26,147 bases of DNA from an uncultured bacterium (GTDB taxonomy: Bacteria; Elusimicrobiota; UBA5214), in the NCBI GenBank assembly GCA_964599925.1, contig CAZRHN010000005.1, positions 2,563-28,709 on the forward strand, given 5' to 3'. A program made the translations under genes and the position numbers. Numbering within the stretch: the stretch's first letter is position 1; every line of letters starts with the position of its first letter. This document shows, one piece after another, positions 7,056 through 26,147 of the stretch. The notes below the pieces were generated by a model. It worked only from the letters and a program-made list of their open reading frames with translations. It did no database searches and was not told the origin of the DNA.

Positions 7056-7467
7056 CCTGGTTGAATCGCAAATAATAAAATCAGGATTAAAGAAAGACTT
7101 ACCTCAATTCCGTGTCGGTGATACGGTAAGAGTATGGTTTAAGATTGTTGAAAATCCCTCGGAGAAGCCAAGCGAAGCGGTGGTGCGTTTACAACCTTTT
7201 GAAGGGATCGTAATTCGTTACCGTGGGACAGGTTTATCCCGCACTTTTACAGTACGAAAGATTTCTTCCGGTATCGGTGTAGAGCGCACCTTTCCCTTGT
7301 ATTCCCCACAAATTGAAAAAATTGAAGTTTCAAAATCAGGTAAAATAAGACGAGCGCGATTATATTACTTACGCTATGCTCTCGGTCGCGCTGCTCGGGT
7401 TGAGGGAGAAACGGTTAAAGAAACAACAGGTAGTGTTAGTGAACAGGCAGAAAAAAATATTTCCTGA
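7039..7467 (+). CDS. rplS: 50S ribosomal protein L19
   Basis: [49 protein letters not shown]. Confidence 0.97.
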
Positions 7468-7843
7468 AAATAAAGGGCGATGGCAAGAATTCGGGCATTA
7501 CGGGGAAAGAATCGCCTTAGAGTTCTTAGAAAAAGAGGGTTACCGTATTCTTGAAAAGAATTATCGTTGCCAACTGGGTGAAATTGATTTAATTGCCCGG
7601 GATAAAAATATAATTGCCTTTATTGAAATAAAATCTCGTCAAGGGCTAAGTTTTGGTTCTCCTCAAGAGGCAGTTACTCACCATAAACAAAGACAGATTG
7701 TTAAAGTTGCACTCTATTATCTAAAACAAAAACACCTCCTTAAAGACCGTCTATTATTTAGATTTGATGTTGTATCTATTTCTCCAGAGGGTATTGAATT
7801 GATTAAGGATGCTTTCTCGTCCCCAGCGGGGTATACATATTGA
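7439..7843 (+). CDS. YraN/UPF0102 family putative endonuclease; start uncertain
   Basis: [43 protein letters not shown]. In-frame GTG 7439 has AGGT 7 nt upstream. Confidence 0.85.
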
Positions 7844-11205: not shown

Positions 11206-12578
11206 AAACCTGTTTATTGATGAAAAAAATATTCGGGAAAAAAAATTTTGGACTCCTTAAGGAAATTGGGCAAGCAGCCCAAGAGGATGGTCTTACTGCT
11301 TATTTGGTTGGTGGGCCGGTACGTGATTTTCTATTGAATAAGCTGAGTAAACCCTGCACCAGAAGGATGCAGGGCAAGGATTTAGATATTGTAATTTCCG
11401 GTGGAGAGAAACTTGAGGAAAATACGGCAATAAATTTGGCAAAAAAGTTATTTAAAATTTGGTCGCCTCATCGGCGACTTGCCGGAGAGGCATGGCAGAA
11501 AAGAATAAAATTTAAGATACATCAGCGTTTCGGAACAGCGACCATTTTATTTCCTGAAAAAGGAAACCAACTTTTAGAAATAGACTTTGCTTTTTCCCGT
11601 AAGGAAAACTATCCTTCTCCTGGTAGATTGCCGGAAGTGGAGCCAGGCAATATTGAAGACGACCTTTATCGTCGGGATTTTACGATTAATGCTTTAGCAG
11701 TAAATTTAAGTTCGGACGAGTTTGGCGAATTGGTCGATTCTACTGATGGAAAAAACGATTTAAAAAAAAAATTTATTCGTGTGCTTCACGAAAAAAGTTT
11801 TCTTGATGATCCGACCAGGATATTGCGGGCGGCACGCTTCGCCGGAAGATATAATTTTTCTTTAGAAAAAAAAACTTTAACTTGGTTAAAAGAAGCGATA
11901 AAGAAAAATGCGCTTTTCACAATTAGCCGGCAACGTTTCCGCGAAGAGATGGTGAACATTTTGAAGGAGAAAGAGTCCGCTCATTGCCTTAATTTACTTG
12001 CTGATTGGAGTGTGTTAAGTTTCTTGAGTCCTGATATCCGTTGGGATAAAACCAAAACTATAGATTATAAAATGGAAAAAGGAGACGAAAATTGGTTGGT
12101 AGGGTTGCTTCTGCTGATCAAAGATTTAGATTATCAAAAGACGGAAGAAATTACCAGAAGGATGGTTTTAACCCGCAAGGAGAGAAAAATAATTCTCCAG
12201 AGTAAGAAATATTTACCCGATGCTCTTAAAGCATTGGAGAAAAACTATTCACTTACCCATCTTTATCACTATCTTTCTTTACTTCCCGAACAAGGGTTGA
12301 TATACTTAGGGGTGACCAATTCTTGTTGGACAAATCTAATTGGTACTTTTCAGAGGAGAAAAGACAAAGCAAAACCGGTACTCAACGGTGAAGATTTGAA
12401 AAAAATAGGATATCCTCCAGGGCCAATTTATAAAAAAATATTGAAAAAAATTTTTCAGGTTAAACTTTTAGGTAAGTTGCCGACTTACCTATCAGAAAAA
12501 CAGACTAAGGAAAAAGAAATCAAATTTGTCCTCCGACATTTTCCTCTTAAAGGGGTGACAGCGAAGGAGCGCGCCTAA
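11202..12578 (+). CDS. Class II tRNA nucleotidyltransferase / poly(A) polymerase family
   Basis: LVGGPVRDFLL, DLDIV, RRDFTINALA, SFLDDPTRILRAARF, LNGEDL..G.PPGP. CCA-, A- or CC-adding specificity cannot be determined from this. Confidence 0.9.
   Translation: MKTCLLMKKIFGKKNFGLLKEIGQAAQEDGLTAYLVGGPVRDFLLNKLSKPCTRRMQGKDLDIVISGGEKLEENTAINLAKKLFKIWSPHRRLAGEAWQKRIKFKIHQRFGTATILFPEKGNQLLEIDFAFSRKENYPSPGRLPEVEPGNIEDDLYRRDFTINALAVNLSSDEFGELVDSTDGKNDLKKKFIRVLHEKSFLDDPTRILRAARFAGRYNFSLEKKTLTWLKEAIKKNALFTISRQRFREEMVNILKEKESAHCLNLLADWSVLSFLSPDIRWDKTKTIDYKMEKGDENWLVGLLLLIKDLDYQKTEEITRRMVLTRKERKIILQSKKYLPDALKALEKNYSLTHLYHYLSLLPEQGLIYLGVTNSCWTNLIGTFQRRKDKAKPVLNGEDLKKIGYPPGPIYKKILKKIFQVKLLGKLPTYLSEKQTKEKEIKFVLRHFPLKGVTAKERA
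11351..11378. repeat. ACCCYGC-family palindrome in-frame in the nucleotidyltransferase
   Basis: CCCTGCA-CC / GG-A-TGCAGGG followed by CAAG; encodes KPCTRRMQGK. Confidence 0.75.
11465..11491. repeat. Second palindrome in-frame in the nucleotidyltransferase
   Basis: GCCTC-A-TCGGC / GCCGG-A-GAGGC stem with loop GACTT; within SPHRRLAGEAW. Confidence 0.7.
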
Positions 12579-12770
12579 CGAAGTAGCGAGCGAGTAAGCG
12601 CAATAAGGGGTCGCTGACCGACACTGTCTGAGCGACGAAAAGGAGCTCGTGTCTTGACAGGCCCGAAGGGCAGGATGTCGGGACTTGCGACACAGGCTGA
12701 ACGACGAAGAGGAGTTCGTGCCTTGCGTGCGGCAAAGCCGTGCGAAGTCCTTGATTCTCCTCTATTGAGA
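12541..12770. mobile_element. Candidate non-autonomous structured repeat element (MITE/REP-like), long variant
   Basis: GC-rich multi-hairpin block homologous to 25889-25904 and 25978-26067; contains a 69-nt-period internal duplication. Mobility is inferred, not shown. Confidence 0.6.
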
Positions 12771-12776
12771 GAAAAG

Positions 12777-13382
12777 ATGTTGATCCAGATTTTTGTATTA
12801 CTTTTTGCGGTAGTAGTTCACGAATGTTGTCATGGATGGATGGCCGAAAAATGTGGCGATGATACTGCACGAATAATGGGAAGAATTACCCTTAATCCTC
12901 TACCGCATTTAGACCCATTTGGTTCAATTTTACTTCCTTTACTTTTGATTTTAAGTCGGTCCCCTTTCCTCTTTGCTTGGGCAAAACCGGTACCGATTAA
13001 TCCAACAAAATTCAATAATCTACGGCAGGATTTAGTTAAAGTTGCTTTAGCCGGTCCGGGAGCAAATTTTCTTCTGGCAGTTATCTCAGCAATATTTCTT
13101 TGGTTCGTACCTAGAGGTTTAGTTTTCTACGATACCTTAAATTTTTCGGTATTGATAAATTTAGTTTTGGGTGTGTTTAACCTTATCCCCATACCACCGC
13201 TTGATGGTTCACGGGTTGTTTCGGGTTTATTGCCCTTAGATTTATCTTATAAGTACGATTCCCTTGCCCCTTATGGGTTCATTATTGTTATTTTCCTTTT
13301 TTACAGCGGTTTCTTAGGTTCGGTTCTCTGGCCAATTGTAGTTTTTTTGCATCGGCTTTTACTTATTGGAATCAAGTTTTAG
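12777..13382 (+). CDS. Site-2 protease family (peptidase M50)
   Basis: HECCH (HExxH), GDDTARIMGRITLNPLPHLDP, VALAGP, FNLIPIPPLDG. ATG 12777 chosen; the upstream 41 codons of the ORF call lie in the repeat element. Confidence 0.92.
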   Translation: MLIQIFVLLFAVVVHECCHGWMAEKCGDDTARIMGRITLNPLPHLDPFGSILLPLLLILSRSPFLFAWAKPVPINPTKFNNLRQDLVKVALAGPGANFLLAVISAIFLWFVPRGLVFYDTLNFSVLINLVLGVFNLIPIPPLDGSRVVSGLLPLDLSYKYDSLAPYGFIIVIFLFYSGFLGSVLWPIVVFLHRLLLIGIKF

Positions 13383-14404: not shown

Positions 14405-14503
14405 GATGCAAACAGATAAAAGAGACGATGTAGACGAGATAAAAAAGCTGATTCAAACAAATGAAAAAATCTGTCTGAATCATAGCAGTTATCTGTCTGG
14501 ATC
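14405..14503. repeat. Nested inverted array of ~13-nt modules filling the trpS-scpA intergenic region
   Basis: Left modules GATGCAAACAGAT, GATGTAGACGAGAT, GATTCAAACAAAT; right modules ATCTGTCTGAATC, ATCTGTCTGGATC. Confidence 0.7.
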
Positions 14504-14515
14504 GCTTTATAAAAG

Positions 14516-15235
14516 ATGGATTACACAGTAAGATTAGAAATTTTTGAAGGTCCTCTTGATTTATTACTTTATTTAATTAAAAAGAACGACCTTGACATTT
14601 ATGATATTCCAATTTCCCAGATCACTGCTGAATATTTAGAATATGTAGAGTTGATGAAGATGCTTAATTTAGAAGCGGTGGGTGAATTTTTGGTGATGGC
14701 AGCGACATTAATGCAGATTAAAGCACGGATGCTTCTTCCCACACCAGTATCGGAAGAAGAAAAAGAAGAAAAGGATCCACGGGCTGAACTTGTAGCAAAA
14801 CTTTTGGAATACCAAAAATTTAAAGAAGCCGGGAAATATCTTGAAACACAAGAATTACAGCGAGAAAACATTTTTTATCATCAAGAACCCCAATTTGATG
14901 AAGAAGAATTCGTTTTAAATGTAAGTCTTTTTGACCTGCTGGAATCTTTCCGCCAAGTTATCCGTGAAGCAAAAGAAGAAGTTAAAGAGATTATTTATGA
15001 AGAAATTCCATTAGAAGAAAAGATACGTTATATCTTAAGTTGCCTGGAAGGGAAGCTTTATATTACTTTCCGTCAACTTTTTAATTTTGCAGAAGGTCGT
15101 CTTTCAATGATTGTGACATTTTTAGCGCTTCTGGAATTAATTCGTTTAAAACAAATTGTTGCTCGGCAATCTCGTTCTTTCGGTGAAATTAGAATTTATA
15201 AATTAAAAACTACCCAGACAGATATCTCGGAATGA
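14516..15235 (+). CDS. scpA: Segregation and condensation protein A (kleisin)
   Basis: LEIFEGPLDLLLYLIKKN, EFLVMAATLMQIKARMLLP, VTFLALLELIR. Confidence 0.95.
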   Translation: MDYTVRLEIFEGPLDLLLYLIKKNDLDIYDIPISQITAEYLEYVELMKMLNLEAVGEFLVMAATLMQIKARMLLPTPVSEEEKEEKDPRAELVAKLLEYQKFKEAGKYLETQELQRENIFYHQEPQFDEEEFVLNVSLFDLLESFRQVIREAKEEVKEIIYEEIPLEEKIRYILSCLEGKLYITFRQLFNFAEGRLSMIVTFLALLELIRLKQIVARQSRSFGEIRIYKLKTTQTDISE

Positions 15236-24684: not shown

Positions 24685-25824
24685 ATGCGCCCAAAATACA
24701 TTTTTATAATTTTATTTTTTTCTCTTGCTCGAATTGTATTCGCTCAAGGTTATGACCAACAATTAAAAGAATATGAAAAAGAAATTAAGAGCAAACAAGA
24801 GGAACTCCAAAGGTTGTATAAGGAGATAGAAAAACTTGACCAGGAAACAGAAAAAACTAAAAAGAAAGAAAAAGGTTATTACCAAGAAATAAATAAAGTT
24901 GAAAACGAAATTCGTTTTCTTTTGGATGCATTAAAAAAACTTGAAAATAAGAAAAAGCAAATTGAAAAACAGGTGCAAGAAACAGAAAAAATGTATCAAT
25001 TAACTGAGGAAGAAAGAACTCGTTTAGCAAATCTCCTTAAACAAGAAATAAAATTCTTTTATACTTGGCAGAAATTTTCCCCCGATTTACGTAAAAATTA
25101 TTACCTGCTCAATTTCATTAAACAAAAAGGTAATGTTTATGAACTAACTGAAGACAAGAAAAAGCAAATAGAAAAAAAGAAAAACCTTCTACTTGAAAAA
25201 CGTGAGGAAACTCTACAAGAAAAAGATAAAATACAAAGGCAAGAAAAAACTGTTGTAAATTTGAAAAGAGAAAAAGAACAAATACTTACTCAAGTTAAAA
25301 CCCAACGGGTTACTCAGGAAAAAGAAATTGAGAATCTAAAAAAAGCAACTGCGGATTTAGAAAAATTTATTTTTGATTTAGAAGGGAAGAAAAAAGAAAC
25401 TGAAGAGGCAAAAAAGCAAGCAGTTCTTGCTCGGAAAGCTTTTGCAGAAAAGAAGGGTTATTTACCCTGGCCGGTTTATGGTGAAATAGTGACTAAATTT
25501 GGTAAACAAAGACACCAGGAATTTAACACTTATATTGTTAGCAACGGAATAAAAATTCGCTCAAAGGGAGAAAAAAATGTAAGTGCGGTAGCACAAGGGA
25601 AGGTAGTTTTTGCAGGTAATTTTCAAACTTACGGGAAGATGGTTATTCTTGACCATCAGGGCGGATTTTATAGTATTTACGGTTCACTAAATGAAATCTT
25701 AGTTAAAGAAGGAAAAGACGTCCTCTTAGGGGAACAAATAGGTAATCTTGGTGAAGAATCTTTATATTTTGAATTACGGAGTGAAGGTCAGCCCGTTGAC
25801 CCTTTACCTTGGCTACAAAAGTAA
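24685..25824 (+). CDS. EnvC-like murein hydrolase activator (coiled coil plus degenerate LytM/M23)
   Basis: Signal/TM N-terminus, long coiled coil, LPWPVYG...FG. SNGIKI and LYFELR stand where active M23 enzymes have HxxxD and HxH ligands. Confidence 0.85.
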   Translation: MRPKYIFIILFFSLARIVFAQGYDQQLKEYEKEIKSKQEELQRLYKEIEKLDQETEKTKKKEKGYYQEINKVENEIRFLLDALKKLENKKKQIEKQVQETEKMYQLTEEERTRLANLLKQEIKFFYTWQKFSPDLRKNYYLLNFIKQKGNVYELTEDKKKQIEKKKNLLLEKREETLQEKDKIQRQEKTVVNLKREKEQILTQVKTQRVTQEKEIENLKKATADLEKFIFDLEGKKKETEEAKKQAVLARKAFAEKKGYLPWPVYGEIVTKFGKQRHQEFNTYIVSNGIKIRSKGEKNVSAVAQGKVVFAGNFQTYGKMVILDHQGGFYSIYGSLNEILVKEGKDVLLGEQIGNLGEESLYFELRSEGQPVDPLPWLQK

Positions 25825-25851
25825 AAAATTTTACAGGCTTTTTCTAAGCAC

Positions 25852-25880
25852 TTGACAAACTTCAAAAAATTTGTTAAATT
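25852..25880 (+). promoter_or_regulatory. Sigma70-like promoter upstream of tRNA-Met
   Basis: TTGACA (25852-25857), 17-nt spacer, TAAATT (25875-25880). Confidence 0.65.
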
Positions 25881-25888
25881 AAAAACAA

Positions 25889-26067
25889 TTCCTCTTAAAG
25901 GGGTAGCAGTGACCTCGATGTAACATCGGGGGAACACAATATCCCGACTATTGTCGGGATTTGAGTACGAGTTTAACTCCTCTTAAGGGAATGACAGTGA
26001 AGGCAACTCTGACTAACGAAGTGTCAGAGCGACTGAACGCAATAAAGGGGGTATCCCCTTATTGAGC
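25889..26067. mobile_element. Candidate structured repeat element cluster (two element heads plus short palindromes)
   Basis: TTCCTCTTAAAGGGGT (25889-25904) is identical to 12541-12556; 25978-26067 aligns with 12542-12610 plus 12757-12769; hairpins at 25913-25931 and 25941-25960. Confidence 0.6.
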
Positions 26068-26075
26068 AAGTTTTT

Positions 26076-26147
26076 AGCGGGGTGGAGCAGTTTGGTAGCT
26101 CGTCAGGCTCATAACCTGGAGGTCGTGGGTTCAAATCCCACCCCCGC
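26076..26147 (+). tRNA. tRNA-Met(CAT), initiator-type; last bases cut by the window end
   Basis: Cloverleaf: acceptor GCGGGG/CCCCGC, D-arm GAGC/GCTC with A11-U24, anticodon CAT at 26110-26112, T-arm GTGGG-TTCAAAT-CCCAC. Confidence 0.95.

Follow-up and report, generated by a model that had tools for sequence, protein, structure and literature searches.

A modular, folded interspersed repeat in an uncultured Elusimicrobiota lineage, with a nested copy at the end of a nucleotidyltransferase gene

We analysed a 26,147-nt stretch of DNA (the window) from an uncultured bacterium of the Elusimicrobiota, and in it a structured element of 230 nt located between the open reading frame (ORF) of a CCA-type nucleotidyltransferase, which ends at 12578, and the ATG of an M50 peptidase gene at 12777. 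When the window is divided into 200-nt bins, only the one at the element exceeds 50% G+C (0.525 versus ∼0.37). It belongs to a previously undescribed repeat family that is specific to this lineage, is built from modules, has been gained and lost, and has a conserved fold on the sense strand.

A first-pass annotation of the window had proposed that this element shares a scaffold with the leader of the tRNA-Met gene in which the stretch terminates. Alignment of 12535-12790 with 25970-26080 recovered the common scaffold, and the sequence 12542-12776 is homologous to two tandem units before tRNA-Met, 25890-25977 and 25978-26078. A 23-nt motif at the 5′ end, TCCTCTTAARGGRRTRRCAGYGA, occurs three times in the window, always on the + strand, compared with 0.01 occurrences expected. 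The third occurrence, in the unit directly upstream of the 25978 copy, had been overlooked. A covariance model scan with filters off likewise found three copies in the window and no more. The stem around CTAACGAAGT is degenerate in the 12542 copy, with only three pairs (CGC/GCG); it is CGCC/GGCG in the orthologous compact copy of a related metagenome locus, L026, and has seven pairs (CTCTGAC/GTCAGAG) in the tRNA-Met copy. This confirms the earlier observation of a stem that differs in sequence and is paired at both loci. The terminal stem was also correctly described: it encloses GTAT (4 nt) at 26051, compared with 146 nt (12611-12756) in the 12542 copy. A sigma-70-like promoter at 25852-25880, with 10 of 12 matches and an upstream TG, ends 10 nt before the first tRNA-Met unit.

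A complete unit of the family is about 97 nt long, starts with TCCTCTTAAGG and ends with GCACGACTTTA. It consists of a 5′ box hairpin (P1, UCCUC-UUAA-GGGGA), the junction UGACA, a hairpin of variable sequence (P2) continuous with a base helix of G-C, U-A, G.A, A.G and A-U pairs, one or two unpaired bases, a terminal hairpin (P3, with arms CAAUAAAGGGG and CCCCUUAUUG on either side of its loop) and a short tail, AGCA(C/A)GACUUUA. The parts of the 12542 copy and the two units before tRNA-Met are listed in Table 1.

Table 1. Parts of the 12542 copy and the tandem units of the tRNA-Met leader, in window coordinates
Feature	Position	Strand	Basis or remark
5′ box, hairpin P1 (UCCUC-UUAAA-GGGG)	12542..12555	+	motif search; overlaps nucleotidyltransferase codons F-P-L-K-G
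Junction UGACAGCGAA, degenerate P2 (CGC/GCG, loop CUAACGAAGU), junction UAAGCG	12556..12600	+	base helix with tandem purine pairs
P3 5′ arm, CAAUAAGGGG	12601..12610	+	alignment and pair analysis
Level-1 hairpin module within the P3 loop	12611..12756	+	own parts 12611-12622, 12677-12691, 12744-12756
Nested unit 1	12623..12676	+	hairpin GAGC-GACGAAAAGGAG-CUCG and mini-hairpin GCCC-GAA-GGGC
Nested unit 2, paralog of unit 1	12692..12743	+	hairpin GAAC-GACGAAGAGGAG-UUCG and mini-hairpin CGGC-AAA-GCCG
P3 3′ arm (CUCCUCUAUUG) and short tail	12757..12776	+	ends one base before the M50 ATG, 12777
Unit C, first tandem unit of the tRNA-Met leader	25890..25977	+	covariance model 45.5 bits, E 2e-10
Unit B, compact full unit	25978..26078	+	covariance model 115.7 bits; tail enters tRNA-Met (start 26076)

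In order to evaluate the fold we used model-based alignments, since an alignment by MAFFT alone misaligned P2. In these model-fitted alignments 90-91% of cells were paired, compared with 36-53% in slid controls, and the observed pairing values were reached by none of 500 shuffles. Double changes were found at all 21 pairs of P2 and P3. The pair beside the G.A tandem is changed from U-A to C-G in four copies, including the 12542 copy; a C-G pair in the base helix is also present in L026, L005, L009 and L013, the other copies having U-A. P1 is near-invariant, with the box conserved in all copies and a U.G third pair in 14 of 17; the P1 variants CCUCUUAAGAGG, CCUUUUAAGGAGG and CUCCCGCGGGG remain paired. 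Two analyses independent of the model agree with this structure: RNAalifold on the MAFFT alignment recovered P1 and P3, and the L026 copy, folded by itself at minimum energy, contains P1, P2 with its base helix, and P3. In the minimum-energy fold of the 12542 copy, the box pairs with the altered 3′ arm instead of forming P1. G-U pairs exceed A-C pairs, 17 versus 7, and consequently the fold belongs to the sense strand. These results show that on this strand the family forms three hairpins that surround a junction containing tandem G.A pairs, and bear out the earlier suggestion of an element folded under constraint. Three more specific structures were rejected. A K-turn does not fit, with the tandem G.A symmetrically flanked by Watson-Crick pairs and the bulge absent; pairing of the P2 loop AAGU with the tail ACUU in a pseudoknot suits some copies and fails in L018 and L019; and hammerhead-like core motifs fit poorly, Rfam being silent as well.

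A junction of three helices with conserved unpaired purines, present in many copies 5′ of RNAs that need processing, could be a new self-cleaving or otherwise catalytic RNA that frees the downstream tRNA or mRNA from its leader. We regard this as highly improbable. The helix with tandem sheared pairs fully accounts for the conserved GA pairs, and RNase P alone explains tRNA 5′ maturation. At gathering thresholds, the only Rfam 15 match in the window was tRNA-Met; with E values up to 10, neither locus matched a ribozyme family and both gave chance-level matches only, outside the element.

The junction between the nucleotidyltransferase and M50 genes occurs in three states among the relatives: empty, compact and expanded. 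In L021 (86% protein identity) it is empty, with a 6-nt spacer in the sequence TTTCCCTCTTAAAAAAGAAAATTAACC. In L026 (also 86% protein identity) it contains a compact 97-nt unit with the 9-bp sequence CCTCTTAAA on both sides, and the right flank is otherwise identical to that of L021. The window and three near-identical assemblies contain the expanded form, from which the right-hand repeat is missing. The more distant L022 and L023 have no unit at this junction. Without the element the nucleotidyltransferase ends in FPLKKEN*; in the window it ends in FPLKGVTAKERA, and across copies with a unit in (F/Y)PLKGVTA(K/N)ERA. From this comparison the element supplies eight codons and the stop TAA (12576-12578), which lies inside the P2 loop, in agreement with the claim that it provides the end of the reading frame. 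The series shows that a ∼97-nt unit entered the last codons of the nucleotidyltransferase gene, giving rise to a 9-bp direct repeat, a new C-terminus and a new stop, and it is an example of a repeat rewriting the end of a protein. On the other side of the element, the public gene call for the M50 peptidase (12654-13382, equal to 3566-4294 of L001) begins at a TTG within the element, whereas M50 homologues begin at the ATG 12777; automatic gene calling was thus misled by the element.

The difference between the compact and expanded forms lies in the P3 loop. In L026 this loop is AUUUAAU, where the 12542 copy carries the 146-nt insert. The frame of the insert, UCGCUGA-CCGAC..GUCGG-GACUUGCGAC..GAAGUCCUUGAUU, is the same as that of a 51-nt module found in the P3 loops of L003, L013 and L016. 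Nested unit 1 substitutes for the GAAGAGGAG loop of hairpin 1 of this module, and nested unit 2 for GGA in its second hairpin. The first-pass annotation had described an internal 69-nt duplication. Its two units, 12628-12656 and 12697-12725, are indeed 25/29 identical (28/34 when extended outward) and each is followed by a distinct mini-hairpin, with two of the four differences being compensatory (GAGC..GCTC versus GAAC..GTTC). A plain tandem duplication, however, does not describe them, the nested copies being homologous to their host module: nested unit 2 matches hairpin 1 of the L003 module at 87.5% identity across 32 nt, and the motif CUGA-NCGAC-GAARAGGAG-NUCGN-GNCUUG is therefore present three times, nested. 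A contig from sequencing run X3 skips 12692-12742, corresponding to nested unit 2, and reads GGA instead, as do L003 and L016. Level-1 module DNA was present at 5-6 times the depth of its flanks in run X1. We conclude that in the lineage of the window the P3 loop received a hairpin module, and the module then received two further copies of itself.

Copies of the family outside the window were collected with a covariance model built from seven compact copies, which detected ∼30 copies in the window and related metagenome loci (∼25 of them beyond the window) with E values down to 1e-31; a second covariance model confirmed the copies. A motif search matched 18 metagenome contigs with about 15 true copies. 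The distribution is narrow. The second model found no copy in the relatives L021, L022 and L023 or in the locus of the genome UBA5214, the box pattern had no match in 185,579 reference genomes, and its five matches in viral contigs were to the box only and at chance level. Chance similarity or an assembly artefact can be dismissed as an explanation: nothing but the metagenome origin of the window speaks for it, and it is refuted by the presence of the same sequence in independent JGI assemblies and several sequencing runs, by the E values, and by the expectation for the motif given above.

Units were found whole, as fragments containing only the box (spaced 30 nt) or the box and P2, as tandem copies, and with loops that contain nested hairpin modules, so that the element is modular as had been suggested. 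Similarity among the copies begins exactly at the T of TCCTC and ends just ahead of the Shine-Dalgarno sequence. The L010 copies have a P3 variant of their own in common, CCAG..CUGG, a sign of turnover within a genome. Read depth rises to 3-7 times the flanking value over units and modules, and contigs are interrupted at the repeat edges. Gain and loss, also part of the first-pass proposal, extend beyond the M50 junction. At tRNA-SeC, the site is occupied in L004; in L003 it is empty and reads GTGTTAAAGGAGG. A 159-nt array of L010 is missing from contigs of runs X1 and X4, whose flanks match without mismatches, with TAG (3 nt) common at the edges; in a relative from run X4, tRNA-Gln almost directly adjoins a gene that has a 230-nt array in front of it in L010. 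The earlier proposal thus stands on the grounds on which it might have fallen, with many more copies, strong covariation and no Rfam match.

Other sequence features of these loci were noted. On the minus strand of L009 (8283 to 7960), a diverged unit containing a nested GACGAAAAGGAG module comes after tRNA-Thr and precedes a second copy of the tRNA-Thr 3′ half, the T-loop of which has a 35-nt insert. Arrays at 4495-4260 (minus strand) and 12148-12306 of L010 mix unit-like pieces with other hairpins (GCATCGGAATT..AATTCCGATGC and UAUUCCC-GAA-GGGAAUA) and are present or absent as entire blocks between strains. In L011, other short sequences at 7455-7539 and 7766-7797 have a depth of 150-1190, compared with 16-24 in the flanks, and one of them (57 nt) is skipped in a contig of run X2. 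These genomes contain several further repeat families.

All copies inspected are in sense orientation, 0-40 nt before either the 5′ end of a tRNA or a Shine-Dalgarno sequence with its start codon. The tRNAs are those for Met, SeC, Ser, Lys, Leu and Arg and one called Cys; the protein genes include those for the M50 peptidase, rpsC, rnpA, tadA, an atpB-like and a MotA/TolQ-like protein, and others. Some of the copies are internal to operons or tRNA clusters, and the unit therefore has no fixed link to transcription starts. A promoter scan found no promoter-like site inside units. The candidate TGACAG-17 nt-TAACGA was rejected as an internal promoter: its second hexamer has a wrong final base, and is itself only the loop of one P2 subtype. 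A role of P3 as terminator or attenuator was likewise rejected. No terminator-like site was found in 12000-13200, and of two such sites in 25700-26147 neither is the + strand P3 hairpin. No RNA run was found to contain this organism; the metatranscriptome X14 contained an empty-site relative and generic tRNA only. One 296-nt contig of X14 from this relative, corresponding to window 12384-12883, runs from the 3′ end of the nucleotidyltransferase gene into the M50 gene, which suggests that the two genes are co-transcribed there, unless the contig reflects DNA carry-over.

We believe it probable that the 12542 copy is a composite, with nested parts, of an interspersed repeat that is modular, non-autonomous and specific to this lineage and that resides in the transcribed spacer directly before genes. 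Spread of the repeat could occur through copy-in recombination or template switching at short box-like sequences, for example from a tandem donor, which is the route we favour; an enzyme acting in trans might serve instead. A likeness to the box is shared by ribosome-binding sites (TTAAGGAGG), by tRNA 5′ ends rich in G and by boxes already resident, and this would explain position, orientation and tandem arrays together. The 9-bp repeat in L026 is the conserved start of the unit itself, the box, and box-like sequences (CTTTAAGGAGG, TTTAACGGAGG, TTTTAGCGGGGTGG) also lie to the right of other copies. Once inserted, a unit would share the transcript of the downstream gene, where it would form a stable structured leader or a spacer between cistrons. 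It may be tolerated there, and may modulate processing, stability or translation.

Several observations weigh against this explanation. Neither a mobilising gene nor a full-length autonomous version was found in the loci examined. The two dated events have unequal edge repeats of 9 nt and 3 nt, and terminal inverted repeats are absent, which does not point to a classical transposase. Numerous free CCTCTTAA sites carry no unit, so that CCTCTTAA was rejected as a sufficient target; likeness to the box is not by itself a target, and more than an 8-mer is needed. Transcription of the element and any processing of it are inferred. The pair counts come from model-fitted alignments of related copies and are biased towards the modelled structure. 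In addition, template switching in quasi-palindromes can produce paired changes in one step, so that selection on RNA is less securely shown by covariation in a DNA repeat than by covariation in a single-copy gene. Finally, a host RNA function would account equally well for two features: the conserved unpaired junctions with their tandem G.A pairs, and the presence of a copy upstream of the same gene in two species with ∼70% protein identity (judged by eye).

These last two points bring in the possibility that the unit is a cis-acting leader RNA of the host, whose three-hairpin junction would be a docking or processing signal used by many genes and tRNAs and whose copies would have arisen by duplication. 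Such a leader might act in 5′ maturation, decay protection, antitermination, or ribosome access by way of its anti-Shine-Dalgarno-like CCUC and Shine-Dalgarno-like GGGG. The strict sense orientation, the abutment on gene starts and the distance of 0-2 nt from mature tRNA 5′ ends are consistent with it, as are the covariation flanking the tandem G.A pairs, the conserved U.G pair of P1, and the resemblance of P1 to a mini-helix of anti-Shine-Dalgarno and Shine-Dalgarno sequences. Direct reading of the sequence also shows that the module loop AAGAGGA is complementary to the box UCCUCUU. In rRNA leaders, antitermination by rrn boxA involves a single-stranded boxA bound by NusB/NusE; the box of our family, CCUCUUAA, presumably resembles this boxA, which we take to be UGCUCUUUAACAA, and the 3′ end of 16S rRNA. 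The copies, however, vary between otherwise identical strains, close relatives lack them in 11-22 kb of syntenic DNA, and the genes served share nothing. The 12542 copy landed in coding sequence and rewrote the end of a protein. Truncated box-only units and nested modules resemble the dynamics of a repeat rather than a tuned signal. We consider a host leader clearly the less likely account.

More doubtful still is a combination of the two, in which the unit is a mobile regulatory RNA module. It would then be a general structured leader for tRNA precursors and mRNAs, a handle for a factor of processing, stabilisation or ribosome access, which copies itself beside sequences that resemble ribosome-binding sites. 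If this were true, the family would be a regulatory RNA module and not junk. For small interspersed repeats, the strict tie to the 5′ side of genes is unusual, as is abutment on mature tRNA 5′ ends and ribosome-binding sites. A strongly covarying junction fold and growth by nesting of hairpin modules in its own loops are unusual as well. The series of empty, compact and expanded states at one site is suited to the study of insertion without inverted ends, and to asking whether a long structured leader alters expression or maturation of the downstream RNA.

We also considered whether the family might belong with single-strand DNA elements such as IS200/IS605 or REP/RAYT, which an HUH transposase would move in trans. 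Its hairpins would in that case be recognised by the enzyme and the conserved 5′ flank would be the target, with orientation set by the strand that happens to be single-stranded in replication or transcription. The fold on one strand with tolerated G-U (G-T) pairs agrees with this, and so do the lack of terminal inverted repeats and of a fixed target duplication, the conserved left-border sequence with uniform orientation, and the location of copies near highly transcribed genes (tRNAs, rpsC, atpB, rnpA). We nevertheless judge it unlikely. No TnpA or RAYT gene was seen beside any copy, the three hairpins are dissimilar and without a GTAG-type REP signature, the 9-bp direct repeat in L026 is not a product of that family, and truncated copies retain their 5′ end.

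Returning to the interspersed repeat, we compared it with known systems. Small interspersed repeats are known in many bacteria. Our family is one of them, and it fails the tests that define a classical MITE (a miniature transposable element with inverted repeats), a REP/RAYT element, a terminator or a K-turn. Terminal inverted repeats are absent from the unit ends, the only inverted match to the box being the internal P3 3′ arm. Nor is a fixed-length target duplication present: the 9-bp repeat of L026 has the sequence of the box, and the 159-nt block of L010 has 3 nt in common at its edges. TTAA as a duplicated target in the manner of piggyBac was rejected, for it leaves the conserved TCCTC on its left unexplained. 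The first-pass annotation had advised looking for a version carrying a transposase between the same ends; none was found in any locus examined, and no related autonomous insertion sequence was found in ∼290 kb of loci, which are fragments and not whole genomes, or in viral contigs. MITEs such as the Correia elements, and in-frame repeats such as the Rickettsia RPEs, resemble the family in being short, high-copy, folded, polymorphic between strains and able to alter ORF ends (PMC3184786), and differ from it in these ends and duplications.

The closest likeness in position is to REP2 of Neisseria and the IR of Borrelia plasmids, which have internal stem-loops and no terminal inverted repeats and lie immediately upstream of a gene in its orientation (PMC3184786). 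All copies of our family that were inspected lie in this way and have internal stem-loops. REP2 brings its own promoter, ribosome-binding site and ATG; in our family, by contrast, the promoter of the tRNA-Met array is upstream of the units and similarity ends before the Shine-Dalgarno sequence. Unlike REP2 and IR, the family also precedes tRNAs, forms arrays and nests, and there is no sequence similarity to either. The pneumococcal BOX element is made of boxA, a variable number of boxB, and boxC. It is similar in having modular sub-units in variable number, a stable predicted RNA structure, co-transcription and an intergenic location near gene starts, and in being non-autonomous (cf. PMC3184786). 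The modules of our family, however, are nested in hairpin loops and not strung in a row, its orientation and abutment are strict, and it has no sequence similarity to BOX and a different host lineage. REP and BIME sequences with RAYT, and IS200/IS605 ends, share with it the hairpins on one strand, the lack of inverted terminal repeats and the conserved flank. In contrast to REP/RAYT elements, the unit is ∼97 nt long, has three unlike hairpins with tandem G.A and lies 5′ rather than 3′ of genes; it does not have the form of a REP or REPIN, an imperfect palindrome of 20-40 nt with a conserved 5′ tetranucleotide and a RAYT gene flanked by copies.

The window as a whole is chromosomal DNA of ∼37% G+C with housekeeping genes, all on the + strand. 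Besides the nucleotidyltransferase and M50 peptidase genes, it contains priA, def, fmt, rpsP, trmD, rplS, trpS, scpAB, an EF-G-like gene, glycogen genes, ftsX and an M23 peptidase gene. Near-identical DNA is present in sediment and groundwater metagenomes. The closest reference genome is a metagenome-assembled genome labelled Elusimicrobia bacterium UBA5214, with an EF-G identity of 73%, and the nucleotidyltransferase is at most 37% identical to named relatives. With these as the best matches, the lineage is essentially missing from reference collections.

Two other sequences in the window were noted. The region of approximately 14423-14529, which covers the trpS-scpA spacer and the start of scpA, is 90% identical to L023 over 107 nt and to L027, the UBA5214 locus, over 54 nt. 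This conservation is unusually high for non-coding DNA, the L023 proteins being only ∼62% identical. The region overlaps a 50-nt inverted repeat (14386-14435/14473-14522) and has no Rfam match. A 40-nt inverted repeat (9024-9063/9706-9745) with the core CACCATCCCGAGCAAAGTCGAAGGA has its arms in an MBL-fold gene, in frame, and in a DUF2851 gene. The same core is also intergenic in L007 and L020 and occurs in L027, and it looks like a second small repeat family that is able to occupy coding sequence.

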